Source: a virus (taxonomy: Duplodnaviria > Heunggongvirae > Uroviricota > Caudoviricetes). Taken from it: a stretch of 64,000 bases of DNA. Below, piece after piece: positions 22,683 through 50,400 of the stretch. Every line of letters starts with the position of its first letter. Within the stretch, counting starts at the first letter, position 1. Location of the stretch: the IMG/VR virus record IMGVR_UViG_2636416131_000001, positions 1 through 64,000 of that record. One strand, 5' to 3'. Both the position numbers and the translations under genes were made by a program. Under the pieces are notes generated by a model, which saw only the letters and a list, made by a program, of their open reading frames with translations, searched no databases and was not told the DNA's origin.

Positions 22683-25600
22683 CTATATTTTTCCGCCTAC
22701 GCCTTTAAACTTCTCAATAAACGAGACGATTTTCTGGAAAACTGCCTGTTTTTTCGTTTTATATTGCGGATTTAACGGACTAAGTTTTGGTAATGTTTCG
22801 TTTAATTCTGTGCCATTTTCGGTGGCATATTCGCGTTTTAAAGACGTGCGAATATAGCGTTTTGCTGCATCTTCATTGAGATTTTCTTCTTTTATCAATG
22901 CTTCTGCTTCACGTTGCTGTTCGCGTTGAGCAAACGTAAAGAATGCGTCAATGATGCTGGCTTTGTCCGGTAAATCATCCAGGTTCGTTTGCTGAATAAA
23001 ATCGACCACCAGGCCCTCTTTAGCACGGTTCCCTAGGCTTGAACGAATTAAGCGTTTGACCTCTTCGATCATTTCGCCCTTGCCTTTATTTTGTCTGTTG
23101 TGTTCGAAAATCAGTCCAAGGATATAATCCAGGTTTATTTCCTGAGACTTCAGCAAATCGACCTCAAAAACTACGTCATCCCAGTCAGTGGTTGATTTCT
23201 CTTTTTTCTCAGCTTCTTTCTCACGGCGCTGCCAGTCGCGAATATCGTTATAGGCAGAACGATAATCCTGAATCTTGCGATCAGCAGGGAGACGAATTGT
23301 TTGCAATTCAGCGAATTTTTCATCATCCACATAATGTTCTGCTTTGAATTTTTCTACCGCAACAGGATCGCTAAGATCGATTTGTTGCAGGGCTTTCAGC
23401 GTGGCAAATTCATCATAGTTTTGCAGGATGTTCTCGGCACGCAGGTATTCACCAAACAGTTTAACGAAGTCTTTCTTCTCTTTTTCACTTTCAATACTGG
23501 CAGGGTCAGGGAACCGTTGTTCCAGTTCTGAAACTACTGCCATAAAGCCGCGCTTAGCTTCACCAGTGGCAGCATCAGTAAAGCCTTCCATATACTCTGC
23601 ATAACTCTTTTCTAAAACCACATTTTTGGTGTTTTTGTCACCAAACAGCGTTATGGCATCAATAGTTGAGCGTTCCAGATCCCGGAAAGTGACGATATTA
23701 CCGAAGGTTTTAGTTGCATCATAAATACGGTTGGTGCGGGAAAATGCCTGCATCAAGCCGTGAAAACGCAGGTTTTTATCGACGAATAGCGTGTTCAATG
23801 TTGGAGCATCGAAGCCAGTTAAAAACATCCCCACGACAATTAACAGATCGATATCCTGATTTTTAATCCGTTGGGCTAAATCGCGATAGTAGTTCTGAAA
23901 ACCGTTACCGTCGGTGCTGAAGTTAGTTTTAAAATAGCTGTTATACTCACGAATTGCAGCGTCAAGAAACTCTTTAGCACTGCTGTCCATTGCACTGGTA
24001 TCAAAAGATTCATCGGAAATTTCACCAATGGCATTTTGTTCTTCATTAGCGGCAAAGGAGAAGATTGTCGCAACACGCAGTGGTTTATAGGTAGCAGATT
24101 TATTAGCTGCTTCCTCTTGTAACCGTTTAAACGTCGCGTAATAGGCTTTCGCGGCATCCACGCTGCTCACTGCCAACATAGCATTAAAACCTTTTGAGCC
24201 AGGGAAGGTACGGTGGGTTTTCTGGCGGAAATTATTCAGAATATATTGCGTGATTTCCTGAATACGCATGGGATGAAGAAACGCCTGCTGATTTTCAGCC
24301 GCACTCAGTTTTTTCTCGTCAGTTTCTGTCTCTAAAGACTTAAACTGTGGCCGCACATCGTTGTAGTCCACCTTGAATTTGAGCACTTTTTCGTCACGAA
24401 TCGCATCGGTAATTACATACGAATGCAATTCACGACCAAATACGCTGGCGGTTGTTTCTGAGCCTAAGGCGTTTTCCGGGAAAATAGGGGTGCCGGTAAA
24501 ACCAAACTGATAATAGCGTTTGAATTTCTTCTTCAGGTTTTTCTGCGCTTCTCCAAACTGGCTGCGGTGGCATTCATCAAATATAAACACCACTTGCTGA
24601 TTATATACAGGCAGGTCGCTTTCTGCTTTCATCAGGTTATTGAGTTTCTGAATAGTAGTGACGATAATTTTGTTATCGTCCTTATCCAGATTTCGTTTAA
24701 GGCCTGCGGTATTTTCCGAGCCGTTGACGCTGTCTGGCGAAAAACGCTGATATTCCTTCATGGTCTGGTAATCGAGGTCTTTCCTGTCGACCACAAAGAA
24801 GACTTTATCAATAAAGTCCAGCTCTGTTGCCAGACGCGCGGCTTTAAAGCTGGTGAGGGTTTTACCAGAACCGGTAGTGTGCCAGATATACCCACCGCTT
24901 TCCGGTTTTGACCAGTTCTTCGCTGTAAAGGAACTCTTAATTTTCCACAGAATGCGCTCGGTGGCGGCAATCTGGTACGGTCGCATCACCAGTAGCGTCT
25001 GACTACTGTCAAAAACGCTGTAGTTCACCAGAACATTCAGCAGAGTATGTTTCTGGAAAAAGGTAGCGGTAAAGTCTTTGAGGTCTTTAATCAGCGTGTT
25101 GTCTGATTTCGCCCAATTCATGGTGAAGTCAAAACTGTTTTTATCGCGCTTTGTGGTGTTGGCAAAATAACGGGTATCAGTGCCGTTGGAAATGACGAAC
25201 AGCTGCAGATACTTAAACAGGGAATTTTCGCTGTTAAAACTCTCTTTACTGTAACGATGTATCTGGTTGAAAGCCTCACGAATCGCCACCCCGCGTTTTT
25301 TTAGTTCGATTTGCACCAGCGGTAAACCATTAACCAGGATCGTGACGTCATAACGGTTAGCATGAGAACCCGTCTGTTCAAACTGCTGGATAATCTGCAC
25401 CTTATTGCGCATGAGATTCTTTTTATCTATCAAATAGATGTTCTCAAGTCGCCCGTCGTCAAAAATAAAGTCGCAGATATAGTCGATATGGATTTTACGG
25501 GTTTTATCCAGAATACCATCGCTGGGGTTGTCCAGATACTGCTCCGTGAAGCGCCGCCACTCGCTGTCATTAAACATCACACCATTGAGGCTCTGAAGCT

Positions 25601-25799
25601 GTTCCCGAACATTGGACAGCATTGCCGACTGTGATTTTACGGAAATAAATTCATAACCCTGATTCCGCAGGTCCTGAATCAGTTCACGTTCCAGGTCCGA
25701 TTCGCTCTGGTAGCTGTCGCTTGTTTGCTCAGCTTTGATGTACTTATCAAGGACGATAAAGTTATTGGATTCAGCAATGGTGTGTGTTTGATGAGTCAT
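22683..25799 (-). CDS. hsdR: type I restriction enzyme R subunit, EcoR124-like (type IC)
   Basis: 1038 aa; helicase motif I HTTGSGKT and DEAH-like FDECH; separate from hsdMS by a 122-nt gap; AT-rich. Confidence 0.9.
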
Positions 25800-25921
25800 A
25801 GCGCATCCTTTGTGCCGCCTGGCAAGAGCCGGAAGGGCGTTAAGAGTGACTTCCGGCGCGTAAAAAAATAGTCTATATACTGACCGGATGTTAAGGTGGT
25901 CCGGTCTGTAAAAATGCTCAA

Positions 25922-27070
25922 TTAATTACTGGCTGTTTCAGGTTTTGGGAAACTGAACAGTAAATCACGATAGTACTCGTATTGTTTCTGGCGCAACTCG
26001 ATTTCACGCGGGAGACCTTCGGTGATGGAGTTGGTCAGTGTGTCGAATTTATCGAGTATTGCGACGATACGAGCTTGCTCTTGTAAAGGGGGAACCAAAA
26101 CAATAGGAGCATTTAATATGTTATATGAAACAAAAGGCTGTGATGCACTATTAGATTTTGAACCGAAATCTTGTAAAAGTAATAAATAGTAGGCGTATTT
26201 TTGAAGAACTTCCTTCGATTTGTGCCTACAAATAACTCCGTTGTATGTAACAAAATGCTTACCTTGGCCCCAGTTAACGATTCCTGCGTAAGCACCTATA
26301 TGACCAATAACAGGCGAGTCTTCGCTGTTATATTTGTCATGGGAGCCTACAATCCCGTTGCTACCATAAACAGGATATTGCCCTCCAGATTTAGGAATTG
26401 TATTGCCTGTTCCATACTGAAAATCATAAATATCACCTATCCTCATTTCTCGAGTATTTTCCCTGCCCTCAAGATTCAGTAACTGGTCGCGATAGTAGTT
26501 GTACTGTTTTTTACGCATGTTAAGCTCAGCGGTAAGCTCAGCGGTAACTGCAGTAAATTTATCCAGAATCCGAACGATTTCAGACTGGATGGCAAGGGAT
26601 TTTTCCGGATTATCCGGGCAAGGGATTGGAACTTCAAACTTATCTGTATCAGGAGTTGCAATTTGTGGCATTTGCATTTTACCCCCAATTTTCTGGAAAT
26701 ATCCTTCATTTATTTTTAGGAAGTAATAAATATACTTTATGCTTATCGCATCATTATTTGAGTGATATGACCACATCTCATTTTTGTGAGAGAATGGTTT
26801 ATCGTAATACTCGAATTCGATAATACCTCTGGATTTAACAATGATCGATGGCTCTCTATTAATATCTTTCTCTGGAATATCTTTAAAGTCAACAAAGGCT
26901 ACTGTTTTTCCCCCTGCAAAAATTTTAAGCGGCGCATTATCTTTGTGAAGAGCTTTCATCTGCCCAGCGGTTATTTTTGTGCCTTTAGTTCGTTTAAGCA
27001 CTTTCTCTAGTGTTTTCCACTCAACCTTAACTCCATCCAGCAATTTTTCCAGATAACTCAACTCGCTCAT
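25922..27070 (-). CDS. hsdS: type I R-M specificity subunit with central TAEL x2 repeat
   Basis: Two target-recognition regions separated by conserved ...[27 protein letters not shown]...; start overlaps the hsdM stop (ATGA). Confidence 0.85.
26521..26544. repeat. 12-bp tandem repeat x2 (TAAGCTCAGCGG) encoding TAEL-TAEL in hsdS
   Basis: Direct tandem duplication read in sequence; encodes the spacer-length determinant known from EcoR124I/II. Confidence 0.7.
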
Positions 27071-28629
27071 TTCTGTACCTCGCAGCCTTCAATTTCAGCC
27101 ACAATCGCATCAATATCTTTGCGCAACTGGTCGATTTTGCTGACCGTGGTTTTCAGCTCTGCATTCAACTCAGCGATATCGATAATTTCGCGAGTATCTT
27201 TCACTTCAACATAGCTGCTCACCGACAGGTTATAGTCATTAGCAACAACAGTCTCAAACGCAACAGATTTCGCCAGATGAGCAACATCTTCCTTGCTGGC
27301 AAATACCTGCATAATTTTTTCTATATGGGCATCGGTCAGAATGTTGTTGTTAGTCTCTTTTTTGAACAGTTCGCTGGCATCAATAAACTGAACTTTGGTA
27401 TCCGTTTTATGTTTAGACAGCACCAGAATATTGACGGCAATGGTGGTGCCAAAGAACAGATTCGGTGCCAGTGAAATCACGGTTTCGACATAGTTATTGT
27501 CAACCAGATACTGACGGATTTTCTGCTCCGCGCCGCCACGGTAAAAAATGCCCGGGAAGCAGACAATCGCAGCACGACCTTTGGCAGAAAGATAGTTCAG
27601 CGCATGTAATACAAACGCAAAGTCAGCTTTGGATTTGGGGGCCAGAACGCCAGCCGGGGCAAAACGTTCATCGTTAATCAGCGTCGGGTCATCGCTGCCA
27701 ATCCATTTCACCGAATACGGCGGGTTAGAAACGATGGCATCAAACGGTTTTTCATCTCTGAAGTGCGGCTCAGTCAGCGTATTGCCCAGCTTGATATCAA
27801 ACTTGTCGTAGTTGATGTTGTGCAAAAACATGTTCATACGCGCCAGGTTATAGGTCGTATGGTTGATCTCCTGACCGAAAAAGCCTTCTTCGATGATGTG
27901 GTCATCGAACTGCTTTTTCGCCTGCAACAACAGCGAACCGGAACCTGCTGCCGGGTCGTAGATTTTGTTAACGTGGGTCTGGCCGTGCATTGCCAATTGT
28001 GCAATCAGCTTAGAGACGTGCTGCGGTGTAAAGAACTCGCCGCCTGACTTACCAGCATTCGCGGCATAGTTAGAAATCAGGAACTCATAGGCATCGCCGA
28101 ACAGGTCAATCTGATGTTCGTTGAAGTCACCAAGTTTTAACCCTTCAACCCCTTTCAGAACCGCAGCCAGGCGGGCATTTTTATCTTTAACGGTGTTACC
28201 CAGGCGGTTACTGGTGGTATCGAAATCAGCAAACAAACCTTTGATGTCAGCTTCTGAAGGATAACCGTAAGCAGAACTTTCGATAGCAACGAAGATGCTG
28301 TTTAAATCTGCGTTCAGTCTGTCATTGGTATTTGCTTTCGCCGCTACGTTGCAGAAAAGCTGACTGGGGTAGATGAAGTAGCCTTTAGTTTTGATGGCAT
28401 CGTCTTTAATGTCATCAGTAATTACGCTGTCATCCAGTTTCGCATAACAGATACTGTCATCACCGGCTTCAATATAGCTGGAAAAATTTTCGCTGATAAA
28501 ACGGTAGAAAAGTGCGCCCAGAACGTATTGCTTAAAATCCCATCCATCGACCGAACCCCTGACATCGTTAGCAATTTGCCAGATTTGACGATGAAGCTCT
28601 GCACGTTGTTGAATACTTGTCATTTTCAT
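27067..28629 (-). CDS. hsdM: type I R-M N6-adenine methyltransferase subunit, EcoR124-like
   Basis: 520 aa; SAM motif [10 protein letters not shown] and catalytic NPPY ([11 protein letters not shown]); N-terminus [25 protein letters not shown] matches my recollection of EcoR124 HsdM. Confidence 0.9.
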
Positions 28630-28753
28630 CCACTTATTTCAGGCTTATGTAATTGGCGGTGATTCTACAGCAACTTGGATGCTTTAGCAGTTCGGACATT
28701 AGGCAACGAATGACCTAATTAGAGCTTTTTGGAAAAGCGGTATTGTCGGTGCG

Positions 28754-28978
28754 ATGATAGCTATGTTTGGGTGCGCGATGGTGCAATACAATGACGGTGA
28801 AAAGGTAAGCATCCAGTCTGATGGCTGGTATGGGCTGGATAGCCTGCAAAAAACCGCAGATAAAGCCTGTCAGCAATATGGAAAGTCTAAAGCCGTATAT
28901 CAGCATAGCGCGAACGCTAATCCACATCTCGCGCCCGGCACGGGCGTTCAGAACACTATTTGGAAATGCGAACCATAA
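28754..28978 (+). CDS. hypothetical small protein, possible lipoprotein
   Basis: 74-aa ORF with AMFGC lipobox-like start; overlaps an antisense ORF; weak. Confidence 0.2.
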   Translation: MIAMFGCAMVQYNDGEKVSIQSDGWYGLDSLQKTADKACQQYGKSKAVYQHSANANPHLAPGTGVQNTIWKCEP

Positions 28979-29161
28979 CGCAGGTTGACTTTTTACATCT
29001 TGGGCCGAATACTGATTCCGCGCTAAGTTGTTTGTGCGGAAGTGACACTGTGGAGCTTAGAAATAGTAAATACTGGTGGGCAACAAATTGAGCCTTCACA
29101 CGCTCACCAGCACACACAAAAAATGGTTAAACAGCAAGGGAATTAATATCTCATCGCGACA

Positions 29162-29299
29162 TTAAATAAGCCAGCGCACGCCTCTGTTTATCACTGACTT
29201 GAAAAACCATATCAGAACCACGATGAAGACAATCGCCAGCACTTGGCTAAGAACAGGCGCATTTAAAAATGCACTTAGAAACTGAAAAAATACAATCAT
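29162..29299 (-). CDS. 45-codon hydrophobic peptide
   Basis: AGGA SD; MIVFFQFLSAFLNAPVLSQVLAIVFIVVLIWFFKSVINRGVRWLI; below the track cutoff. Confidence 0.25.
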   Translation of the reverse strand: MIVFFQFLSAFLNAPVLSQVLAIVFIVVLIWFFKSVINRGVRWLI

Positions 29300-29767
29300 C
29301 AGGGTAATCCTCGTCTAATGTAAAGCTGTGTGCTCTCACGTTGACGTAGAAACCCAACCTCTATATAGTTGGATTCGGTGAAAGAAAGTCGTTAACGTGA
29401 ACTTACGGCACATGTTTTCGGTATAAAAATCAGGGAACTGTGAATTCCTTGATGTAGTTGGGGCCTGTAATGCAGGCCCTATCTATTAATGTCATGATTA
29501 CATCTCAAATTTTCTCCTTATCATTATTATTTAATAAAATTCAATTAATATAATATCCATTTCCTGTGTGTGCAAACACAGTATGAGGAAAATGGCCCCG
29601 TTGCAAGTGCATAACTTTGTGGATAACTCTGAAGGCGAATTTACATTTCGGCGCACCGCAAGCCAGATAAGCTGTGCGCAAAAAGCAATGGGGTGAGAAA
29701 AAAACTTTGAAGATATTGCGGCGACTAAATAATAGCCGTTATTCAATTATTCTGGATGGGATTTAAT

Positions 29768-30019
29768 ATGAACGAATGGAACATAGCAGCCAAAAGCCAG
29801 GAAGAAAGGAATAAAGTTAACGTTGACCTGGCTGCCAGGGGGGTTGCCTACAAAGAGCGATTGAACATACCCGTCATAGCGGAACAGGTAGCCCGTGAGC
29901 AACCTGAGAACCTGCGCACCTATTTCATGGAACGGCTACGGCACTACCGGCAGTTAAGCCTCCTGCTGCCAAAAGGAAACGATCCGGTATATCAGAAAGA
30001 AGATATAGCCAAAAAATAA
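29768..30019 (+). CDS. hot: DNA polymerase III theta-subunit homolog
   Basis: [42 protein letters not shown] aligns with E. coli HolE from recollection; 83 aa from the internal ATG. Confidence 0.8.
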
Positions 30020-30079
30020 CGCGCCACCAGGCGAGCGCAAAGCATCGCGCTATTGCACACTTCAAGCATCTTTAATGTA

Positions 30080-30099
30080 TACTGTATGGATAAACAGTA
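30080..30099. promoter_or_regulatory. LexA (SOS) box upstream of humD
   Basis: TACTGTATGGATAAACAGTA matches the CTGT-N8-ACAG consensus, 19 nt before the humD ATG. Confidence 0.7.
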
Positions 30100-30117
30100 C
30101 TCTGAGGTGAAAACGCT

Positions 30118-30507
30118 ATGGGCTTCCCTTCTCCTGCGGCGGATTATGCTGAGAGCCGTATTTCTCTTGATCAGCAGATAATTAGACATCCTTCAGCGAC
30201 CTACTTCATGAGGGCAGCTGATAGTCATCATCGTGAGGGAATATTACAGGGTGCATTGCTGGTGGTTGATTCCTCACTTACCCCGGTTGATGGTTCTCTG
30301 CTTGTATGCGCTCTGGATGGGGAATATCGCGTAAAAAGATACCGGAAGTATCCACGTCAGCATCTGGAGGATTTAAGAACCGGTAAGAAGGAAGCATTGC
30401 CAAAGGATGACGATGGATGCACGGGGAGTAATGCTGTGTTTGGTGTGATCACTCATGTCATTAATGATGCCCGAAGTGGGGAATTTGATGATTGTCCGGT
30501 GATTTAA
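30118..30507 (+). CDS. humD: UmuD'-like S24 peptidase-family protein
   Basis: 129-aa protein in the P1 hot-humD-phd-doc position; LexA box upstream. Confidence 0.75.
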   Translation: MGFPSPAADYAESRISLDQQIIRHPSATYFMRAADSHHREGILQGALLVVDSSLTPVDGSLLVCALDGEYRVKRYRKYPRQHLEDLRTGKKEALPKDDDGCTGSNAVFGVITHVINDARSGEFDDCPVI

Positions 30508-30579
30508 GCTGCAAAGTGCTGGTGCTTTATGCCTGTGAAGTTTATAATTGTGTACACATAACGAGTACACGAGGTGTTT

Positions 30580-30801
30580 ATGCAATCCATTAACTTCCGT
30601 ACCGCGCGCGGCAACCTTTCTGAAGTGCTCAACAATGTTGAAGCCGGGGAAGAGGTTGAAATCACCCGCAGAGGCCGTAAGCCAGCAGTAATTGTCAGCA
30701 AGGCTACTTTCGAAGCCTACAAAAAAGCGGCGCTGGATGCTGAATTTGCATCCCTGTTTGACACCCTGGACTCCACCAACAAGGAACTGGTTAACCGATA
30801 A
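30580..30801 (+). CDS. phd: Phd antitoxin
   Basis: [32 protein letters not shown]... matches P1 Phd as I recall it; 73 aa. Confidence 0.9.
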
Positions 30802-31181
30802 TGAGGCATATATCACCGGAAGAACTTATTGCGCTTCATGATGCGAATATAAACCGCTACGGCGGCCTGCCGGGAATGTCAGATCCGGGTAGGGCAGAGG
30901 CCATTATCGGGAGAGTTCAGGCCAGAGTTGCCTACGAAGAGATCACCGACCTTTTCGAAGTCTCCGCCACCTACCTGGTGGCTACAGCGAGAGGGCATAT
31001 ATTCAATGATGCCAATAAGCGTACCGCGCTAAACAGTGCGCTGCTATTTCTACGCCGTAACGGGGTGCAGGTATTTGATTCACCAGAACTGGCAGACCTT
31101 ACCGTAGGGGCTGCGACCGGAGAGATATCTGTATCTTCTGTCGCCGACACGTTACGTAGATTGTATGGTTCTGCGGAGTAG
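30801..31181 (+). CDS. doc: Doc toxin (Fic-fold kinase)
   Basis: 126 aa; TAATG overlap with phd; matches P1 Doc from recollection. Confidence 0.9.
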
Positions 31182-35939: not shown

Positions 35940-36090
35940 GTAGCGTTTAGCTCAGAGATCAATGGTAGTGCTGGCTGGGCTGCCGAAAGGCAGGCCGGTT
36001 CCCTTTGACGCCGGTAGTTCCAACCCAGTCAGTGCTACCGCCATTGAGATTGGAACCTCACGCGGTAGCTCCTTAACTTAGTCAAAGGAG
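35940..36090 (+). ncRNA. structured leader, candidate c4-like antisense RNA locus
   Basis: 16-bp stem (GGTAGTGCTGGCTGGG with CCCAGTCAGTGCTACC, allowing G-U); GGTTCC/GTTCCAACC elements complementary to ATTGGAACC copies at 35850 and 36047. Confidence 0.3.
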
Positions 36091-36099
36091 GCTGCCATT

Positions 36100-36321: not shown

Positions 36322-37430
36322 GAACGTCATTAGTCACCCGTGAAGAGATGATCGAGGCAATTGAACAGCACACTGCCTGTATCAGCACCAGGGATATTCC
36401 CAGTGTTATAGCCAACTACTTCATGATCACTAAACAACTTTACCGGAGAAAGGACAAGAACGCGGTTCACCGTATCCTGCTGTCTGATATTCGCGAATAC
36501 CTGCTCGAACAGGGTCATCTGAATTACGCAACCGTCGCAGCCGAAGCACGCAAGGAGGCACACAGAATGAAAGCAACTAACGTTAAATCAGAAAAAATTC
36601 ATGCACCTTCAGTTCAGGAATCGGAGCTGGTGGTTGTTCAGAATCAGTCTGATGAAATTCCCGTTCTGGAATGGCTGGGAGTGCGTGTAGTGACAACTGA
36701 GACTCTTGCTAAAGGGTATGGGACCGATGAAGCGAATATTCGTAAAAATTTGTCTCGCAACCCCGATCGCTTTGAAGAAGGTAAGCATTACTATCTCTTA
36801 ACTGGTTCAAAATTAAAGGAATTTAAAAGGCTAGTGACTATTAGTCACTTGGTTAGCAAATATACAAGTCAGGTAATTCTCTGGGCCGAGCGCGGAGCGG
36901 CACGCATGTCTAAGATCGTGGACACAAATGAAGCATGGGCATTCTTTGAAAAACTGGAAGACAGCTACTTCCGGCAAAAAGAACAGCAACCGGTTGCAAT
37001 CCCCCAAACATTACCAGAAGCCCTACGCCTGGCTGCCGAACTGGCTGAAAAAAAGCAGCTTCTGGAACAGAAAGCCCACCAGCTAAATCAGCAGCTGGTA
37101 GCCGCCGCTCCTAAGGTCGATTTTGCCGACCGGGTATCAGTAGCTAAAGGGATCCTGATTGGGAATTTTGCAAAGGTTGTTGGACTTAAGCAAAACGCGC
37201 TGTTTGCCTGGTTACGGGAGAACGGCATCCTGATAGCGTCCGGTGGACGTAAAAATGTGCCGTTCCAGCAGTACATCAACGCGGGGTATTTCACGGTGAA
37301 AGAAGTGGTGCTGGATGATGAAGATGGCTACCAGATACGGTTGACGCCTCAATTAACGGGTAAAGGCCAGCAGTGGTTGACGCGTAAACTGCTCGATGCT
37401 GGCTTGTTAAAACCGGTGGCGGTTGAATAA
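36318..37430 (+). CDS. phage antirepressor-like protein (ORF6N-like N-domain, KilAC-like C-domain)
   Basis: LEWLGVRVVTTETLAKGYGTDEANIRKNL in the N-part; VVGLKQNALFAWLRENGIL...NVPFQQYINAGYF in the C-part. Confidence 0.55.
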   Translation: MRTSLVTREEMIEAIEQHTACISTRDIPSVIANYFMITKQLYRRKDKNAVHRILLSDIREYLLEQGHLNYATVAAEARKEAHRMKATNVKSEKIHAPSVQESELVVVQNQSDEIPVLEWLGVRVVTTETLAKGYGTDEANIRKNLSRNPDRFEEGKHYYLLTGSKLKEFKRLVTISHLVSKYTSQVILWAERGAARMSKIVDTNEAWAFFEKLEDSYFRQKEQQPVAIPQTLPEALRLAAELAEKKQLLEQKAHQLNQQLVAAAPKVDFADRVSVAKGILIGNFAKVVGLKQNALFAWLRENGILIASGGRKNVPFQQYINAGYFTVKEVVLDDEDGYQIRLTPQLTGKGQQWLTRKLLDAGLLKPVAVE

Positions 37431-39467: not shown

Positions 39468-40499
39468 ATGTCCAATTTACTGACCGTACACCAAAATTTG
39501 CCTGCATTACCGGTCGATGCAACGAGTGATGAGGTTCGCAAGAACCTGATGGACATGTTCAGGGATCGCCAGGCGTTTTCTGAGCATACCTGGAAAATGC
39601 TTCTGTCCGTTTGCCGGTCGTGGGCGGCATGGTGCAAGTTGAATAACCGGAAATGGTTTCCCGCAGAACCTGAAGATGTTCGCGATTATCTTCTATATCT
39701 TCAGGCGCGCGGTCTGGCAGTAAAAACTATCCAGCAACATTTGGGCCAGCTAAATATGCTTCATCGTCGGTCCGGGCTGCCACGACCAAGTGACAGCAAT
39801 GCTGTTTCACTGGTCATGCGACGGATCCGAAAAGAAAACGTTGATGCCGGTGAGCGTGCAAAACAGGCATTGGCGTTCGAACGCACTGATTTCGACCAGG
39901 TTCGTTCACTCATGGAAAATAGCGATCGCTGCCAGGATATACGTAATCTGGCATTTCTTGGGATTGCTTATAATACCCTGCTACGTATAGCAGAAATTGC
40001 CAGGATCAGGGTTAAAGATATCTCACGTACTGACGGTGGGAGAATGTTAATCCATATTGGCAGAACGAAAACGCTGGTTAGCGCCGCAGGTGTAGAGAAG
40101 GCACTTAGCCTGGGGGTAACTAAACTGGTCGAGCGATGGATTTCTGTCTCTGGTGTAGCTGATGATCCTAATAACTACCTGTTTTGCCGGGTCAGAAAAA
40201 ATGGTGTTGCCGCGCCATCTGCCACCAGCCAGCTATCAACTCGCGCCCTGGAAGGGATTTTTGAAGCAACTCATCGATTGATTTACGGCGCTAAGGATGA
40301 CTCTGGTCAGAGATACCTGGCCTGGTCTGGACACAGTGCCCGTGTCGGAGCCGCGCGAGATATGGCCCGCGCTGGAGTTTCAATACCGGAGATCATGCAA
40401 GCTGGTGGCTGGACCAATGTAAATATTGTCATGAACTATATCCGTAACCTGGATAGTGAAACAGGGGCAATGGTGCGCCTGCTGGAAGATGGCGATTAG
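39468..40499 (+). CDS. cre: Cre tyrosine recombinase
   Basis: 343 aa beginning MSNLLTVHQNLPALPVDATSDEVRKNLMDMFRDRQAFSEHTWKMLLSVCRSWAAWCKLNNRKWFPAEPEDVRDYLLYLQARGLAVKTIQQHLGQLNMLHRRSGLPRPSDSNAVSLVMRRIRKENVDAGERAKQALAFERTDFDQVRSLMENSDRCQDIRNLAFLGIAYNTLLRIAEIARIRVKDISRTDGGRMLIHIGRTKTLVS; matches P1 Cre as I recall it. Confidence 0.97.
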   Translation: MSNLLTVHQNLPALPVDATSDEVRKNLMDMFRDRQAFSEHTWKMLLSVCRSWAAWCKLNNRKWFPAEPEDVRDYLLYLQARGLAVKTIQQHLGQLNMLHRRSGLPRPSDSNAVSLVMRRIRKENVDAGERAKQALAFERTDFDQVRSLMENSDRCQDIRNLAFLGIAYNTLLRIAEIARIRVKDISRTDGGRMLIHIGRTKTLVSAAGVEKALSLGVTKLVERWISVSGVADDPNNYLFCRVRKNGVAAPSATSQLSTRALEGIFEATHRLIYGAKDDSGQRYLAWSGHSARVGAARDMARAGVSIPEIMQAGGWTNVNIVMNYIRNLDSETGAMVRLLEDGD

Positions 40500-41020: not shown

Positions 41021-41077
41021 GCCGCAGTTTTTGTCAACTACGAAGACGTTGCCATTACTTCACTCCTTGACATCATT

Positions 41078-41103
41078 GGCGGCCATTAGGCCGCCTTTTT
41101 TTT
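41078..41103 (+). terminator. hairpin plus T8 in the ref leader (terminator/attenuator-like)
   Basis: GGCGGCC-ATTA-GGCCGCC followed by TTTTTTTT, 5 nt before the ref ATG. Confidence 0.5.
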
Positions 41104-41108
41104 GCCAT

Positions 41109-41669
41109 ATGAAAACAATCGAACAAAAACTTGAACAGCGCCGCGAGTGGCAGAAGGCAGCCAGAGAACGAGCGATCGCTCGGCAACGGGAAAAGTTGGC
41201 TGACCCCGCCTGGCGAGAATCGCAATATCAGAAAATGCGGGATTCTATCGACCGCCGTATCGCTAAACAGAAAGAGCGCCCACCAGCCAGCAAAACGCGG
41301 AAAAGTGCGGTAAAAATAAAATCTCGTGGCTTGAAGGGGCGAACACCGACGGCGGAGGAACGGACCATCGCCAATGCTCTTGGCACTCTCCCCTGCATTG
41401 CCTGCTACATGCATGGAGTAATATCTGAAGAGGTGTCTCTGCACCATATCTCCGGTCGTACCGCGCCGGGTTGTCACAAAAAGCAATTGCCCCTTTGCAG
41501 ATGGCACCACCAGCATGCAGCACCGGCTGAAGTAAGAGAAAAATACCCTTGGCTGGTCCCCGTTCATGCCGATGGTGTGGTTGGAGGCAAGAAAGAATTC
41601 ACCTTGCTGAACAAGTCAGAGATGGAATTGCTGGCTGACGCCTATGAGATGGCAAACATCATGCACTAA
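41109..41669 (+). CDS. ref: recombination enhancement function, HNH endonuclease
   Basis: Internal ATG gives 186 aa (the P1 Ref length as I recall); Cys/His cluster CIACYMHG...LHHISG...CHKK...CRWHH. Confidence 0.75.
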   Translation: MKTIEQKLEQRREWQKAARERAIARQREKLADPAWRESQYQKMRDSIDRRIAKQKERPPASKTRKSAVKIKSRGLKGRTPTAEERTIANALGTLPCIACYMHGVISEEVSLHHISGRTAPGCHKKQLPLCRWHHQHAAPAEVREKYPWLVPVHADGVVGGKKEFTLLNKSEMELLADAYEMANIMH

Positions 41670-41818: not shown

Positions 41819-41846
41819 AAGCCGCCGCTGGTGGCTTTTCTTTTTT
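41819..41846 (+). terminator. rho-independent terminator upstream of mat
   Basis: AAGCCGCC-GCTG-GTGGCTT hairpin followed by TTCTTTTTT. Confidence 0.5.
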
Positions 41847-41857
41847 GTAGGGGCGCT

Positions 41858-42499
41858 ATGGATAAGAAAATATGCGTTGTTTCAATGAGCGTCGGCAAAC
41901 CGGCGTCAATGACTGCTGCATGGATCAACAATGAGCTGATAATGGCTGAGCGGACCAGCTACCCTGAACGCCGCCGCGATATGGAACTCCAGCTGCTGCG
42001 CGAATTGCGAGAAAAAGAGGAAAAGGGTTTTATCGTGCTGGTGGAAGAGGAAAACAGCTTTATTACCGGTCGAGTTGGCCAGCGTGTAAGGTTGCGTGAT
42101 CCCTTCATGAACGGCAGACCGGTACTGATTGAAGCAATGCAGATTTACAAGGAATTGGAACGCCAGAAAGCGATCAAGTTACCGCGCAAGGAATCCGGCA
42201 AATACATCCTTCACCAAAGCATCTTCGATTCCGAACACGATAAAAAAGGCGATGAATTTTTCAACATCAACTGGAGCGAAATAACGACAGAACATGTTCT
42301 GACGTTACTATGTTGCTTTGCGACGGAATACAACAACGTTGCCAGCGCCGACTACATCAGGGCAATGGCTGGAGAAGTTGAGGCCCATCAGGAACCATCA
42401 TTACTAAGTCCCCTGATTAACATAATTCGCGGAACTCAAACACTAACGCAAAAACAAGTGCCGCAAGGAGAATTAACAGGTAAACAGAACTATTTATAA
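41858..42499 (+). CDS. mat: maturation control protein
   Basis: ATG after AGGGG SD (the track GTG start lies inside the terminator hairpin); named by position after ref. Confidence 0.5.
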   Translation: MDKKICVVSMSVGKPASMTAAWINNELIMAERTSYPERRRDMELQLLRELREKEEKGFIVLVEEENSFITGRVGQRVRLRDPFMNGRPVLIEAMQIYKELERQKAIKLPRKESGKYILHQSIFDSEHDKKGDEFFNINWSEITTEHVLTLLCCFATEYNNVASADYIRAMAGEVEAHQEPSLLSPLINIIRGTQTLTQKQVPQGELTGKQNYL

Positions 42500-42611
42500 T
42501 AGTTACGTTAGGTAACATTATGGGTATGTTTCATTTTCATACCCATTGATTTCTAGCTTGATTTGTTATTATATGTAACAACACATTAATCATTTGAACT
42601 GGATGTTAGTA

Positions 42612-43733
42612 ATGGGCAGTGAAGTATATCAAAGCCAAAAATGCGAACTTAAATATTCGAAATCTCAAATAGAAAAAGCAGCCAGAAAAATTAGACATGG
42701 TTGTGAGGGCGCAGAGCGAGAAGAAGCAATTAAAATGATTCAAAATTTCCGCGAGCTTCATTTATATCCATTGATGCTAATGAAAAATCATCTTGATAGG
42801 GCTGCAAAAAAAGTTGATAAAGAGAATAAGATTATTGTTGCAAGACGCCTAAAAAGACTTAGCACAATAATTGATAAACTGGAGCGTCCAAGTCTTGACG
42901 GCGGCGCAACAAATAATGCAATAGCCCTTACTAGAATGCAGGATATTGGCGGATGTAGAGCTATAGTTAGAAACATCGAACAACTAAAGAAACTAAAAGA
43001 CCGACTAGTTAAAAGTCGCTCCAAGCATAAAATCTTAAAGGAATATGACTATTTAACTCCAAAGCCAAGCGGATATAGTGGCATTCACCTTGCATATAGT
43101 TGTTTTGATGAAGAAAACGGTAACAATCCGTGGAGTAAAACTAAAATCGAAGTACAACTAAGAACAGAACTCCAACATGCTTGGGCAACAAGTCTGGAGA
43201 TAATAGATACACTTGAAAATATTAAGCTGAAAACTTCTAATGAAGGTCACCCTGAGTGGAGAAGATTTTTTTATCTTTCTGGATGCCTAGTTGCTCATGA
43301 TGAAGGTGCCTGTATTCTTGATGATGAAACCATCAAAAATTATCAAACAGAGCTTAAAACATTGGAGGAGGCTTTATCTGTTCGCTCAAAATTAAGTACA
43401 TATACATTTGCAATGAAGCTGACATCAGATGCAAACCTAAAGAAAAGCCTGCCCAAAAACCATAATGGATTCTTTTTGGTGAGGATGAGAAACGCCATAA
43501 CAAAAAATGGCAAGGATACTGGAAAGTTTCTTGTTTCTGTGAAACCTTTTAGGAAAAAAGAATCGGAACAAGCCCTCCAGGAACTTAATAAGGATGATGC
43601 GGATCCTGAAGTATTAATTGCGGTGCTGCTTGCCACTAACAACATTAAATCTCTTAAAAAGGCTTATCCTAACTATTTTGGGTCAACAAATCAGTTCGGG
43701 AGATTCCTTAGCAGACACATTGATACTGTGTAA
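42612..43733 (+). CDS. RelA/SpoT-domain toxSAS fused toxin-antitoxin, CapRel-like
   Basis: Synthetase-fold motifs RMQDIGGCRAIV and KIEVQLRTELQHAWATSLE; 373 aa from ATG with GGA SD; AT-rich relative to backbone; occupies the P1 res/mod position. Confidence 0.6.
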   Translation: MGSEVYQSQKCELKYSKSQIEKAARKIRHGCEGAEREEAIKMIQNFRELHLYPLMLMKNHLDRAAKKVDKENKIIVARRLKRLSTIIDKLERPSLDGGATNNAIALTRMQDIGGCRAIVRNIEQLKKLKDRLVKSRSKHKILKEYDYLTPKPSGYSGIHLAYSCFDEENGNNPWSKTKIEVQLRTELQHAWATSLEIIDTLENIKLKTSNEGHPEWRRFFYLSGCLVAHDEGACILDDETIKNYQTELKTLEEALSVRSKLSTYTFAMKLTSDANLKKSLPKNHNGFFLVRMRNAITKNGKDTGKFLVSVKPFRKKESEQALQELNKDDADPEVLIAVLLATNNIKSLKKAYPNYFGSTNQFGRFLSRHIDTV

Positions 43734-43737
43734 ATTC

Positions 43738-43762
43738 CTATGCCTGGCTTAGCCAGGCATAG
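43738..43762. terminator. 11-bp perfect hairpin between convergent genes
   Basis: CTATGCCTGGC-TTA-GCCAGGCATAG. Confidence 0.45.
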
Positions 43763-43770
43763 CCAAAGAT

Positions 43771-44019
43771 TTAATCAGCATTCAGGAGCAATGCGTTATC
43801 TATGATGATCTGCTCCCATTCTTCGAATGCCCGGTCGCGGACGCCCTGGGGAACGCTGTTAGTTTTGAAATCGACGACCGTACGCCATTTCCCGTCCGGA
43901 CGGTACATGCGCAGAGCTTTACTTCCCCCTTCCCTGCGCACCTCAACGTTATGCTTATCAGCAAACTCTTGTAATGCTCGTAGCGTCCCATGCTTTACTG
44001 TGTAGTATCGCTTTTTCAA
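43771..44019 (-). CDS. lxc: Lxc (Bof) modulator of C1 repression
   Basis: 82 aa, last gene of the darB-ulx-lxc string; length and position as I recall for P1. Confidence 0.65.
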   Translation of the reverse strand: MKKRYYTVKHGTLRALQEFADKHNVEVRREGGSKALRMYRPDGKWRTVVDFKTNSVPQGVRDRAFEEWEQIIIDNALLLNAD

Positions 44020-44456
44020 GTTTTCTCTCCAGCCTGTGCCAAGGCTTCAACTTCCAAATCGTAAGACTCAAACTCATAGTCCTGGTCGTCAACTTCTTCA
44101 GGCACTGGCAGTAAATGCCAGGCTGAGTATATCTGACCATTATCAAAACGCTCCTGGCTGTAGAGCGTCGCGGCTATGAGTGTTAGCGCCGGGCGGTCAT
44201 AACGGTAAATTTTGCGAACGTCACGGTCAACGAGACGACCGAAATTACCATAACCGCGCTCCAGTAATAATTTTTTAATTTCCGGCCAGTATGGACCATA
44301 GCTGCGGTACAGGCGGGGATTTTTCAGTAATCGCCCGCGTAGCCCTGACAGGAAGAAATCAACGTATTCGTCTTCTGTCTTTCCTAACAACGCTGTACGG
44401 AGTACCGCCTCAAGATATGTTTTATTCGGTTTTATTGTATCAGATAGTGTGGCCAT
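44016..44456 (-). CDS. ulx: hypothetical protein upstream of lxc
   Basis: 146 aa; ATGA overlap with lxc. Confidence 0.55.
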   Translation of the reverse strand: MATLSDTIKPNKTYLEAVLRTALLGKTEDEYVDFFLSGLRGRLLKNPRLYRSYGPYWPEIKKLLLERGYGNFGRLVDRDVRKIYRYDRPALTLIAATLYSQERFDNGQIYSAWHLLPVPEEVDDQDYEFESYDLEVEALAQAGEKT

Positions 44457-44489: not shown

Positions 44490-47400
44490 TTATGCGTATT
44501 GTTGGATGACGGCCAGAACGTCCGCCACGTTGTGTTTTGTCTCGATAATCCACCAGTTACCCGGGAAATCGCTGTTCTTCGCCTTCGCTGGCAGCCAGCG
44601 AGCGCCGAATTTCGCCTTGATTGCGTCTTTCGCACGGAAAAGAACGCCTTTCATGCCTGAGGCTTCCTGAAGCCCAAATACCTCGCCAGCGGCGAATTTT
44701 GGTGCGTACATCATCTTCAGGTCGGCGGTGGATACGCGATAATTCAGACCAAGAGACTGAGCTATGCTGGTGGCATCACCCTGTATTGATGATAACTCTT
44801 CTTGTTTCTCGTTTCTGGCGGCAATCTCTTCCTCCGTGATGTTGCCAAGGGCCAGGTTTATCCGATCAGCGTCGGCCTGTTTCTCTTCATCGGTGCGCCC
44901 GGCAAGAACCGTGTTAATTCTCTGCAATATCTCCACATGATTCTTGCGCATGCTGAGCAATTCCGGCGTAACCTCGTTAAGATCCACCAGCCCAAGGATG
45001 GCAAGGTCGGAAAACATTGATACCAGGTTGTAGGTCATGCGATAGCTGAGTTGACCATAGGCTGATGGCAACTTCACCGCATCCATTTGATAGGCATCCA
45101 TAAATTTAGAGCCGTCGTTTACGACATCCGCTATTGCAGGTGTGATTTTCCCTGTGGTGGCGGCCTCCCTGATTGCTGTTACCCACGATTGAGTCAGCGC
45201 GGCGACTGCATGATTCAGATTGGCTTCCCGTTCTGCTGCGATGCGCGCGCTTGCTGCGTCCATTGCCTGCTTGATCTCGGCTTTATTGCTGTAAATGCCA
45301 ATGGTGCCAAACTGTGCTGTGGTGATCTCATAATCTGACGCCCGGAACTCATTGGTACCGAAAATGGCATTGGTGACTTCAAGTTCAGAATCCCCGTTAC
45401 GAGTAGCCCCCTGGCTTGTTTTCTCCGGCATTCTGGCGATCGCATCCGCTATTTTCTCCTGAATTGCTTCAGGGGATAGCGTATCTCCGTATGACGCGAT
45501 TACATCGCCATAATTGGAGCCAAACAGTTCAACCAGGAATGCTTCTGCCGAACGGATCTGGCGGTTATTCCCTTCCGACATCATACCAAGCACCCATTTT
45601 GCAATTGACGACTTCAGCGCGCCGTCACGGCGATCCGGGTAAACCGCATGCTTCAGTGGGTCCGTATAGGTACCAACAAAATCAATGCTATAGCCTGACT
45701 CTGTAGTCTGAACGCCGTATGAGTCAGTGATTTTGATCATGCCGCGCTGCTGGAAACGGTAGAAATCGTCACAGGAAACGATGTCGTTAATCCCGGCGAT
45801 GGAGACGCCACCACTGATTTTCTGCATAACAGCATCTTCATCGGGAGTTACATCAACCTGTTTATCCAGCGTCTTCACATCCCAGTTACCCGATTTGGTG
45901 CCTTTGAAGGTAAAGATGATCTCCACGTCTGCGCGCTGGCTGTCGAAGTCCAGCGACTTAATGCGAACGATATCACCGGCACAATCATAGTATTGGCCTA
46001 CACGCCATGAGCGATCGCCGATAACAAGGAACTCATTCGCATGGTTAACCAGATCAGGATCAACATCCAGAATGCCTTTATTTATTGCATCCTCCACCAG
46101 CGGGCGCAGGCGTTTGATATCCGTCGCGGCCTTCTGAGTACGGTTCAATAATTTCTCATAGCGGGAGATGGCCTGAGAGATATTAGCCTTGCGCTGAATG
46201 GCGCTTTTCAACGACGCGCGATACTGTGCTAACAACATACGGTCTGTGTGATGGACGCTACCCCAGCGGGCTTTCCAGTCTGCGTTATCAGCTGCTTTGG
46301 CCATTACCGCCTGTTTGAATTTGGCGACGTCGGCGGTGGTCTTTTCAAGTTCCGCTTTGCTTCGCTCCAATTCAGCGGTAAGTACCTCCACATCCTCACC
46401 AGCTGCGTGCTGCGCCTTGATGTAGTTCTGAAGGTCGATAGTAGCCTGTTCTTTCTGGCGAGCGCGTTTCGCAGCTTTCGCCTTATCCATTTGAACCTGC
46501 ATCATTGCCAGACGTTCGCCGTCATCCTTCGCGGTATACATCTGCATTTCGATCATATCGTTGGCGTCGGCGTTCTCCATTTCTGACTTATCTGAACGGA
46601 GGATATCGGAGATCCAGCCTGCTTTACGCTTCAGCGTCTTCAGTCGGTATTCATCGAAAGACCCCTTGCCGCAGTAGTAGTGAACGCGAACGCTTGCACG
46701 GTTGGAGCCAACTCGGGCACCGCGACCGTTTCGTTGCGCAATACTGGCTGGAGTCCATGGCAACGTCAGATGATGGATGTCAGTCGTTCCTCGATGCAGG
46801 TTGATACCCACCTCTGCCTTTTTGTTGCAGATGATGATCGGAGTCCGGCCCTCCTGGAAGTCGGCTGCAATCTTTTCCAGACCGCCCAACGACATTTCAT
46901 TTTGCTGCGCGATATAGGCGTCATACAGAGCCATTTGCTCGTTGTATTTCGCTATCTGTGCATCTGTTGGTTCATCCGGTAACTCTTTCGGCGGTTTAAC
47001 CGCTTTCAGTTTCTTACCGGTTTTACCTGCCTCGGCAACCGTCTGAGCATTCAGTATCCCCACCTTTGAAGGTTCAAGGTTAAGAGCATTGCAGATAATG
47101 CGCTTGAGCTTCTGGTGCTGCGTTTTTTCATCGGTGAAGATGATTTGCTTACCTTCCGGGAAAAACTCCTTCAGCGTGGCAATCAGCTTCGCGTATTTGG
47201 GCGTAACGGGGTGAGTTACGGTCTGTTCGTCAATGCCAAACCTGGCCAGGCGCTTATTCACTTCCTGCTCGAACGCTTCCGGAACCTGCAACTGAATAAA
47301 CTCGCCCTTATCTATCAGGGAGTATTGCGATTGCTGCGTGATTGAATCATCACTGTCGTCGTCTTCGCTGGTGGCTTGTTTAGGCAAACTGTCCGCCAGC

Positions 47401-50400
47401 TGCTGCACCGCATCGGCGTACTCCGGCAGGAAACGATAGGTGATCCGGCGATAGTACAGGTCCATGTCAGTACATACGCGGTCCATATCCCTGATTATTG
47501 AGAAGATCGGACGGGCTTTCTCGTGCTCAATCACGCCGTCTTCATTGACCGAGGTCGTTACGCCATTGTTGGCTTTGGCCGCCGCTTCCGCCTGCTGACG
47601 CAATTCTTCATACGCCGCCAGTTGTTCTTCAGTAAGTGGTGCATCCTGCTGGTGTTCGTCCAGCTCCGGGATCTCCACGGTATCCTTAACGTCTTCCGCC
47701 GTTTTAAGCGTTACCCAGCGATGGAATATACCGCGCAGCGCATCAAGGTTTTCAAAGCCCACCAGCGCCATTTTTTCTTCAACTTCACCGCTAATTTTCT
47801 GTACCGTTTCCAGCCTGGTCTTGCCGAAGAATTTAACGAAGTCATCAGGACCGTAGATCCCCATGTTCTGCCAGTATTCCTTCGGCAGAACATGAGAAAG
47901 CATGTTGTATGCATCGATCGGGGTGTTAACGACTGGCGTTGCAGTCAGGAGAACCGGCCCGCGCCCACCATTCTTTTTCATCAGGTACGCGTTTTTAATT
48001 GCCATATCTCGCGCCGATTGCGCCACCGCGCTGGTGGGCAGATAGGCCAGTTGTGACGCTTCGCGACCATTTTTATAGCTATTGCGGTAGTTGTGACCTT
48101 CGTCAGCGATCACACTATCGAAGCCCATATCCTCAAAGTACGGATACTTCTCTGCTTTTTCGGTGCCGGTATCTGAATACTCCGACAATACCCGGCGACG
48201 CGCGGCCTCTTTGCGGTGGGAGTCGGAGTCCATTGCGCTGGCTACGCGTCCGGCGGCAACGAAGTCATAAAGCATATCCTGTGCATGCTCATCTACGGTG
48301 TCATCACGTAGCGGAATGCGGGCGTATTGTTCTTTGGTAAACACGACTGCACGGTAATTTGAGTGCGGGATCGCGTTCATCCGCGCCGTGATAGTGGCTT
48401 CATCTGCCAGCTTAAGAGCATCGCGCATAACTGGAGTGCCATCAGTACCAAGAACAGGTTTACCGTTCTCATCGAGCACCTGCACCTGGCGAATCTGATC
48501 GCCATCCATCAGCACATCAAGACCGACGAACAGGTAGTTACTGAATGCCTCTTCACTCAGGAATTCTTTTGCTTCGTAATACCAGTTTTCCAGCACTGAT
48601 TTAGGCACTACATACGCAGTACGGGTGGAGCGACCGTTCTCATAGTTGAACGCCTCAAGCGCCAGCGCGGTCGTGGTTTTACCCAGCCCGGTGCCGAAGC
48701 CCAGGATGCCGCGCCCATCTTCGGACAGTCGGCGCACCTCGCTATTCTGGTAATCAAATGGCTGGCGCTTACCGCTTAATCCCTTCAACCCAAGCGGATC
48801 GCCAGAGTGTTCATACGGGATATTGCTATTGAACACATCGTTGTATTTAGCAACCAGCTCATCGTAGCGATCGTGCGTCTTGATCCACTTATTGAACTGG
48901 TCCTCAAGCAGTGCCATCTGCTCGCGGTAGCCGTTCGCCGTCGCGCTATCTTTGCCACCGATACGCGCACCATTGAGATACTTTTCCAGCTGTGCCGGGA
49001 ACCCGGTCGCGTTTTCACCTGATTTACGGTCCCACTCGTAGCGGATCTCGCCTGTTTCTTTATCCTTACGCTGGACGACACCGTATCGGTGCCCGACGAA
49101 CAGGCCATCACCACCGTGATAGGTGTCAGAAACCATTTCGTCGCCTTCCAGCTGCACTGACTGCACATAGCGCAGATCCGGATAGCCGTTTTCCTGCAAA
49201 AACTCCAGAATGACGGAACGGTCGAACCAACGGCTATTGAGCTTAAAGCGGATATTCTCTGCTGGCGTCTTGATGCGCTTCTCTTCGATCGCTGCCAGCT
49301 GATTAAGGACGTTGTTCTTTACTGGACCGTCGGGGAGCGTGGCGAGGAATTCCTGTTTTGGAGCCACTATCTCGTTAATGTCGCCGCTGGTGGCGCGGGC
49401 GAACGGAACAATCCCGCCATACGGTGAAACCGCAATGCCAGGGGTGCTGGCCAATAAATTAAGCAACTCGTCATCACTGGCTGGCAGTTCGCCGGTAAAC
49501 GCAAGGCGGAAATCATCGAGCTGGATTGGATCGCGAGTGAGATCACTGTAGAGATAACGCAGGGTGTCCTGATAGCTGGTGGAGTCATAACTGGCGCTGG
49601 AATCATGCGTAACCAGTTTTCCTGTCAGCTCGTCAGAAATAGTGCCATCCAGCTTAATTGCACCACGGAAAGCAAACCAGGCGCGCGCACCGCTCCCCGA
49701 TAATTTCGCTATCGGACCGCGACCGGGGTTACCAAAACGGTCAATCTCTGCCTGCAAACGGAATACCAGAGAAAGGCGCTGCTGTTCGATTTGTTCAGCA
49801 CTATGCCCGGCGGCCTTCATGTCCTGATATTCAATTAACATCCGGCCAATCATCGCCCCGCGATACAAGCGTTCACGGTATTTTTCAGGCTGGCTGTTAA
49901 TCCAGTCCACCAGCTGCACCATATCGTCGCTGATTGATGTGGTGTACTTATCGCGGACATTTGCCATCTGGGTAAATGTCATGCCGAGACGGCCTTCTGT
50001 TGTAGTCAGGTTACGCTGAAGAGCCTCCCAGCTATCCGCGCCATAACTGGCAGCATCGATCTTAAGTTCCTTCCCTGCATCAGCTTCAATCCAGCGACCA
50101 CCAGCATATTTTTGCCATACGCCATTAATCAGGCGCATTTCCCCTTCACCAACAACGTCTGCGGTCGGTGACGGTTCAGCCATATCGAGCAAAGACCAGT
50201 CGATACGGCTTTCGAAACGATGAATCAGCTTCGCTTTAAGAGCCTGGTTATCAATCTGACCGTCGGCACGAACCTCAATACGCCCCTGGAAGCCCTTTTC
50301 CTGGGTGCCATGAACAAACCGGCGGCCGTCCTTTTCAAACCACTTGCCAGAAATAAACGTTGGCCAAAGCACATTTGCCGATTCGAGAGTGCTTTCATCC

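Follow-up and report, generated by a model that had tools for sequence, protein, structure and literature searches.

The gene at positions 42612–43733 of the DNA analysed here, 64,000 nucleotides of the P1-like IMG/VR virus record IMGVR_UViG_2636416131_000001 (positions 1 to 64,000; hereafter, the window), is, on full-length sequence identity, that of CapRelSJ46 itself and not of a protein that is merely CapRel-like. We put at about 97% the probability that it acts in this element as a single-polypeptide toxSAS toxin–antitoxin (TA) that protects the lysogen from other phages by abortive infection, a function carried over from the identical, published protein. Specifically, the product is identical to two crystallised CapRelSJ46 chains, over 373/373 residues of 7ZTB_A (E=1.4e-250) and over 372/372 residues of 9ERV_A (a 372-residue chain), which represent the open state of CapRelSJ46 and its complex with Gp54 of phage Bas11, respectively (PMC11578894; preprint 10.64898/2026.04.06.716658). 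Further, the DNA at 42400–43800 is 99.9% identical to that of Salmonella phage SJ46, and this match, together with the identity to both chains, identifies the gene as CapRelSJ46 and not a relative of it. Nothing that we found contradicts this identification. The gene is already known: it reproduces CapRelSJ46 exactly, in the genomic context already published for it, and adds nothing new by itself.

The CapRelSJ46 gene and its product

The open reading frame (ORF) is intact and lies on the plus strand, from an ATG at 42612, which is also the start codon used in the SJ46 record (where the gene bears only the annotation “RelA/SpoT family protein”), to a TAA at 43731–43733; an in-frame TTG at 42594, 18 nt 5' of the ATG, offers an alternative start that would yield 379 aa (six additional residues). 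An earlier note on this DNA had described a single AT-rich gene for a 373-aa protein with two RelA/SpoT synthetase motifs and a C-terminal extension of about 100 residues, and each of these elements was borne out. The ORF has the expected length, and the guanine-plus-cytosine (GC) content falls to 0.34–0.39 across 42400–43800, as compared with about 0.47–0.54 in the flanks. Both motifs, TRMQDIGGCRAIVRN and KIEVQLRTELQHAWATS, occur in the translation, and the RelA_SpoT profile search that the note had proposed (PF04607) returned a significant match at residues 79–193 (nt 42846–43190; E=3e-13; 50.5 bits versus a cutoff of 27). As for the C-terminal extension, it matches residues 273–373, the fragment published as the antitoxin. 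The note had also compared the architecture with CapRel and called for an alignment with published CapRel sequences; here its wording, “CapRel-like”, proved to understate an exact match, and its expectation that this was probably a described system was correct, as CapRelSJ46 has already been published.

The remaining features of the sequence agree with this identification. The PADLOC model PDC-S33 covers the full-length product (7e-87), and the residues named in the CapRelSJ46 papers (R79, R116, Y155, L280, L307, Y352, and Y355) are all found at their stated positions. The autoinhibitory YXXY motif takes the form Y352-P-N-Y355 and stands on the same polypeptide as toxSYNTH. Thus, the features that define a CapRel are all present in the sequence, namely, the toxSYNTH domain, the ATP-binding and catalytic residues, the pseudo-zinc-finger antitoxin, and identity with the type member. 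The gene and its parts are as follows.

42612..43733, plus strand: capRel(SJ46) coding sequence, fused toxSAS TA (ORF, 7ZTB_A identity, SJ46 annotation, PDC-S33)
42612..43427, plus strand: toxic N-terminal fragment with toxSYNTH, residues 1–272, including R79, R116, and the G-loop Y155 (Pfam; published fragment, PMC9712102)
43428..43730, plus strand: antitoxin/sensor, residues 273–373, comprising part of alpha9 (270–279), the pseudo-zinc-finger domain, YXXY, L280, and L307 (residue check; PMC9712102, PMC11578894)

Fused and split systems of this kind are known. PhRel/ATphRel of mycobacteriophage Phrann and FaRel2/ATfaRel2 share with CapRel the pyrophosphorylation of tRNA by toxSYNTH and an antitoxin related to the CapRel C-terminus (PMC9712102), but these are two-gene operons, whereas CapRel is one polypeptide in a cassette without a second gene. 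In the 1270-bp cassette that holds capRel in the window, capRel is the sole ORF to match a known family, and it has no partner gene; Rfam, searched at gathering thresholds, found no RNA family within the cassette.

Predicted mode of action and expression in the lysogen

The mechanism that we propose for this element follows two Nature papers on the identical sequence (PMC9712102, PMC11578894), the first of which took CapRelSJ46 from a P1-like phage-plasmid; the source, capsid activation, and tRNA pyrophosphorylation given in the earlier note all agree with that account. In the published experiments, residues 1–272 are toxic, residues 273–373 rescue in trans, and the full-length protein is non-toxic (PMC9712102). 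When supplied with 100–200 bp of native upstream DNA, CapRelSJ46 reduced the plating of T2, T4, T6, RB69, and SECPhi27 10- to 1000-fold by abortive infection, with Y155A serving as the paired mutant control (PMC9712102). [quoted passage not shown] Gp54 of Bas11 is a second, unrelated trigger, which contacts an overlapping surface that includes helix alpha9 (270–279) and for which a co-crystal has been solved (PMC11578894).

Transferred to the element in the window, this would mean that in the resting lysogen the C-terminal pseudo-zinc-finger antitoxin (273–373) autoinhibits the N-terminal toxSYNTH toxin. Upon infection by a sensitive phage, newly made major capsid protein (as in SECPhi27, Bas5, and Bas8) or Bas11 Gp54 would bind the C-terminal domain and keep the enzyme open. 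The open enzyme would then move pyrophosphate from ATP onto tRNAs, such that translation is blocked and phage production stops.

Such a function presupposes expression in the lysogen, which would probably proceed from the short AT-rich region upstream of the gene. A consensus scan found a sigma70-like match there, TTAACA-16-TATAAT at 42473–42500 (11 of 12), which spans the mat stop codon and is separated from the capRel start by an AT-rich leader of 112 bp. Of the 15 matches to the P1 C1-operator consensus in the window, none lies between 41011 and 51186, and thus none is near capRel. Direct control of capRel by C1 was thus dropped from consideration; the gene is probably not repressed by C1 and would be open to expression in the lysogen, as a role in defence requires. 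Two hairpins frame the gene. The first, just 3' of the mat stop, has a 9-bp stem (AUGGGUAUG...CAUACCCAU) and could be either the terminator of mat or a structure within the leader. The second lies between the stop codons of capRel and lxc, which are convergent; it is GC-rich, with 11 perfectly paired bp, and resembles a bidirectional terminator without a clear U-tract.

42473..42611, plus strand: upstream region, candidate native promoter (consensus match; predicted promoter role)
42520..42546, plus strand: 9-bp stem hairpin (61-nt fold, -17.3 kcal/mol, z = -4.1)
43738..43762, unstranded: perfect 11-bp GC-rich hairpin (-19.5/-20.2 kcal/mol, z = -4.4/-4.6 per strand)

A cassette in place of the P1 res/mod genes

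The earlier note placed the gene between mat and the lxc-ulx-darB string, at the position where P1 carries the EcoP1I res/mod genes, and both the P1 annotation and the BLAST breakpoints confirm this. In P1 (NC_005856), the order is mat (2716–3468), res (3544–6456, minus strand), mod with IS5, lxc (9750–9998, minus strand), ulx, and darB. Homology of the window to P1 ends with the mat stop codon, whose final base is 42499 (P1 3468), and resumes at 43770 (P1 9749), one base beyond the lxc stop codon; a 1270-bp cassette therefore substitutes for 6280 bp of P1. The mat and lxc genes are convergent, and the ref-mat and lxc-ulx-darB backbone is collinear with P1. Collinearity extends over the whole window (P1 62983..94800 plus 1..30986), at 92–99% identity in nearly all of the matched blocks. 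The genes and flanks around the cassette are as follows.

39468–40499: cre, neighbour gene
41031–41669: ref, RecA-dependent nuclease (RecA_dep_nuc, 1e-49), neighbour gene
41831..42499, plus strand: mat (maturation control), left conserved flank, start codon uncertain (94.6% DNA identity to P1 1968–3468)
42500..43769, unstranded: AT-rich cargo cassette, 1270 bp, GC 0.37, replacing P1 res/mod (P1 homology breakpoints)
43771..44019, minus strand: lxc (modulator of C1), right conserved flank (98.4% DNA identity to P1 from 9749 onward)
44016–44456, minus strand: ulx
44490–51257, minus strand: darB, intact, 2255 aa

The element shares with SJ46 the identical CapRel protein, a 1270-bp cassette with a single synonymous change, and the same mat and lxc flanks, yet homology between the window and SJ46 begins only at 41629. 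SJ46 has a Tn1721 copy adjoining mat and a split darB; in the window, ref-cra-cre takes that position and darB is intact. Because SJ46 has Tn1721 beside mat where the window has ref-cra-cre, the element, by its gene order, is not SJ46 but a mosaic relative. No plasmid in PLSDB matches window positions 22001–47000 in full, the best reaching 90% coverage at 97.9% identity.

The mat-lxc interval as a slot for alternative cargos

The earlier note had read this position as a swappable defence slot, a reading that is supported by a survey of the best 80 Lxc matches in IMG/VR (a sample and not an exhaustive search), among which 73 P1-like loci contain both anchors. When clustered, the 73 mat-lxc intervals were resolved into at least 13 types of cargo and an empty state, with a cargo GC of 0.32–0.43 across the slot types, and genes matching PADLOC models of known or candidate defence systems were carried by 48 of the 73 loci. 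The interval thus holds unrelated, alternative, and defence-enriched cargos between conserved flanks, which makes it a defence hotspot in the sense applied to P2 and P4. The contents of the slot are listed below, with our locus labels in brackets where a type is discussed by locus.

SIR2_2-domain protein (PADLOC PDC-S25/ThsA-like), two variants: 11 and 2 loci
DUF2971 protein (PDC-S31): 10 loci (L016 and 9 others)
EcoP1I-type res/mod, type III restriction-modification (R-M): 7 loci
PIN_12 protein, C-terminus matching PDC-S34: 6 loci (L004 and 5 others)
CapRelSJ46: 5 loci
Second CapRel allele (type T10): 3 loci (L007, L031, L062)
GNAT acetyltransferases, two variants: 4 and 4 loci
3.6-kb unit with ANT/ORF6N antirepressor, HTH protein, and JukA (1e-65): 4 loci
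YaaC-like protein (1.5e-45) with a nucleoside-2-deoxyribosyltransferase-like partner, no PADLOC match: 4 loci (L015, L042, L052, L060)
AraC regulator with EAL protein: 4 loci
Lipoprotein: 1 locus
Empty, 46–53 bp with a GC-rich hairpin: 8 loci

Nearly all of the cargo types other than CapRelSJ46 also bring their own GC-rich hairpin beside lxc.

The second CapRel allele is of particular use for comparison. T10 encodes 378 aa from its first start codon, lies in a 1268-bp cassette, and matches PDC-S33; it shares the fused toxSYNTH plus pseudo-zinc-finger architecture with CapRelEbc, CapRelKp, and CapRelEcHT (PMC9712102). It differs from CapRelSJ46 mainly in the sensor, yet occupies the same mat-lxc interval: identity is 73.7% overall, 77% over residues 1–272, 64% over 273–373, and 59% over 280–335. 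The CapRel sensor domain has been described as the variable, fast-evolving, and specificity-determining part of the protein, and the concentration of T10 divergence in that domain fits such a role.

The closest published parallel to the slot is found in the hotspots of P2-like phages and P4-like satellites, where a fixed interval likewise holds alternative, mostly AT-rich defence systems of one or a few genes; these differ from mat-lxc in phage family and flanking genes (Rousset et al. 2022, PMC9122126), and that study mentions P1 only as a test phage. In the literature searched, in which subscription journals are only sparsely represented, the mat-lxc interval is nowhere explicitly described as a hotspot, and neither a paper on phage-plasmid recombination nor an R-M review mentions the interval. 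A 2025 preprint on P1-like phage-plasmids names type III R-M, dGTPase, PrrC, and CapRel as their main defences, with CapRel commoner in E. coli, and does so without the words “hotspot” or “variable region”. We propose, tentatively and with somewhat less than even confidence, that mat-lxc is an as yet undescribed immunity hotspot, dedicated to one cassette at a time, and that its DUF2971, PIN_12, YaaC-like pair, GNAT, and AraC plus EAL cargos are unrecognised or untested anti-phage systems. The hotspot idea is a small step beyond what is published. As a side observation, the slot cargos match the PADLOC candidates S25, S31, S33, and S34, and the close numbering of these candidates might mean that they were defined from related loci; a literature search on the candidate names returned nothing relevant, and their origin was not found.

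Distribution of the capRel cassette

The cassette is present in 22 PLSDB plasmids (15 from Escherichia, 4 from Salmonella, and 3 from Klebsiella), in all cases at 99.8% identity or more, and is 100.0% identical in several E. coli plasmids, such as NZ_CP009168. As approximately 699 PLSDB plasmids have the lxc-ulx backbone, roughly 3% of P1-like plasmids hold it. Among 5426 complete E. coli genomes, 14 carry the cassette, always on a plasmid and never on the chromosome. The copies in SJ46 and in five IMG/VR loci vary by no more than one synonymous base, and the flanks are 99.5–100% identical, a degree of conservation that points to the recent spread of one block. The exact CapRel protein also occurs on at least 1000 public contigs, mostly under the names “RelA/SpoT domain-containing protein” or “GTP pyrophosphokinase”, and the persistence of these names indicates that annotation is running behind the biology.

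We also note that in Escherichia phage vB_EcoM-673R5 (ON470615.2, L003), capRel is annotated at 3095–4194 as two coding sequences of 549 and 543 nt. This region aligns with the window at only 88.8% identity, with 28 gaps in 4.5 kb, and the darB of this phage is fragmented too. We do not favour a reading of the split gene as a natural toxin/antitoxin variant, because the fragmentation of darB makes a low-accuracy assembly the likelier cause.

Alternative explanations

The names under which the protein is deposited (GTP pyrophosphokinase, (p)ppGpp synthetase, or RelA/SpoT domain protein) would suggest an ordinary small alarmone synthetase (SAS), an enzyme that acts on host physiology through its product, (p)ppGpp or (p)ppApp, and leaves tRNA unmodified. 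The product does share the RelA/SpoT synthetase fold with RelQ/YjbM and RelP/YwaC, but the similarity is remote (PDB matches to YjbM, YwaC, RelQ, and RelP at E 1e-7 to 1e-4; YjbM at 39 bits), and these enzymes use GTP/GDP, whereas CapRel takes tRNA as its substrate and has an additional C-terminal sensor domain. The score against the NCBIfam YjbM GTP diphosphokinase equivalog, NF053588, is far below its cutoff (39.4 versus 320 bits), which argues that this is not an ordinary SAS. Moreover, the identical protein pyrophosphorylates tRNA and blocks translation in vitro (PMC9712102), and a later study contrasted the tRNA-binding pocket of CapRel with the alarmone-making GRel toxins. We thus regard an alarmone synthetase as exceedingly improbable. 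Because the TA gene was seen only on plasmids in PLSDB and the complete E. coli genomes, and P1-type elements do use TA addiction (phd-doc), the gene might also be thought of mainly as a post-segregational killing module that stabilises the P1-like plasmid, with defence being incidental. However, the toxin and antitoxin form one polypeptide, so the differential decay that such killing needs is unavailable, and the full-length protein becomes toxic only once it is bound by a phage protein (PMC9712102). Further, only about 3% of lxc-ulx backbone plasmids (22/699) carry the cassette, and the slot is empty in 8 of the 73 loci, which marks the cassette as dispensable for maintenance. Plasmid addiction as the main function is, on this evidence, very improbable, and immunity of the lysogen against other phages is the reading that we retain for the gene.

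How the cassette reached the interval is a separate matter. It would have come as a 1270-bp block, foreign by its GC content, in place of the EcoP1I type III R-M genes, and slot cassettes would probably be exchanged by homologous recombination in the conserved mat and lxc flanks. Site-specific insertion, whether integron-like, of a Cre/lox type, or by a transposon, would account for the precision of the boundaries, the left one being the mat stop in most types and the right one lying at most about 3 nt from the lxc stop in every type, and cre is only 2 kb away. Nevertheless, alignment of the junctions across the 13 cargo types and the empty slot revealed no common repeat, att-like core, or inverted terminal repeat, three types also replace the last ~40 codons of mat, and no transposase is present in the cassette. 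The flanks of the CapRel cassette carriers are also nearly identical (99.5–100%), as the movement of homologous blocks predicts. The lack of a shared border repeat, combined with the co-inherited flanks, favours homologous exchange in mat and lxc, and we consider the site-specific route unlikely. The limits of the overall account concern the context of the gene only. The homologous route is argued from the absence of att-like repeats; the promoter/terminator scan found 3 sites versus 4.0 in shuffles, and 3 versus 1.6, which is no excess; and the TTAACA hexamer is mat coding sequence that is also kept in other mat alleles. Since matches of its kind are no commoner than in shuffles and it is partly mat coding sequence, we treat the sigma70-like site only as a candidate promoter.

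Other defence, counter-defence, and mosaic features of the window

In place of P1 pmgT-pmgV, the window has a 6.5-kb non-P1 segment at 22608–29104 with a complete type I R-M system, predicted to be of type IC. Type IC hsd loci flanked by P1-homologous DNA are recorded in the P1 annotation and by Tyndall et al. 1997, as cited in PMC12707154. With hsd genes at this second cargo site, the element, as predicted from its genes, would still restrict DNA without EcoP1I.

22608–29104: type I R-M segment, with ORFs 22683–25799, 25922–27070, and 27067–28629, all on the minus strand
HsdR, minus strand: 1038 aa (EcoR124_C, 1.6e-71)
HsdS, minus strand: 382 aa
HsdM, minus strand: 520 aa (N6_Mtase, 1.9e-121)

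The Dmt methyltransferase ORF (3512–6799, plus strand) encodes 1095 aa versus 754 aa in P1. The additional piece, 1020 bp at 3746–4765, is in frame and has Hint_2 and LAGLIDADG_3 domains, and looks like an intein with a homing endonuclease, inserted in the N-terminal portion of Dmt, which is the C5-methylase. Between pacB and c1, at 35739–37430, lies an additional immI-like module in the order isrK-C4-icd-ant, which is ~70–81% identical to the P1 icd/ant1 region, the P1 copy being located elsewhere.

35835–35913: isrK RNA (Rfam, 61.9 bits)
35958–36045: C4 antisense RNA (Rfam, 77.1 bits)
36100–36321: icd-like 73-aa ORF
36318–37430: ANT/ORF6N antirepressor, 370 aa

Slot cargo type T7 (L005) likewise includes an ANT/ORF6N protein of 370 aa, whose domains are laid out as in this antirepressor. 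A 281-aa ORF at 55591–56436 (plus strand) has a C-terminal Tad2-like (anti-Thoeris) domain (2.4e-22) and overlaps a 684-bp non-P1 insertion after ssb; the 2025 preprint reports Tad2 in 56% of P1-like phage-plasmids. Both of the insertion sequences of the P1 reference are absent from the window, namely, IS1 with isaB (P1 22531–24246; window 57225–57257) and the IS5 in mod (window 42500–43769), and the three P1 tRNA genes are kept (7472–7544, 7550–7622, and 9057–9129).

Implications for P1-like phage-plasmids

Few bacterial immune sensors are as well characterised as CapRelSJ46, for which crystal structures and two phage triggers are available. The element in the window combines it with type I R-M genes, the Dar genes for anti-restriction, and a Tad2-like ORF. 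Taken with the slot survey, this set of defence and counter-defence genes suggests that such plasmids, which are widespread in E. coli and Salmonella, shuffle both kinds of module. Should the hotspot proposal be true, uncharacterised anti-phage systems could be mined from one address, mat-lxc, and the two slot CapRel alleles would form a natural pair for the mapping of trigger specificity. The survey would be useful for such mining or for predicting the phage susceptibility of carrier strains. More broadly, the survey shows the classical EcoP1I position to be one allele of a highly polymorphic immunity locus in P1-like phage-plasmids.

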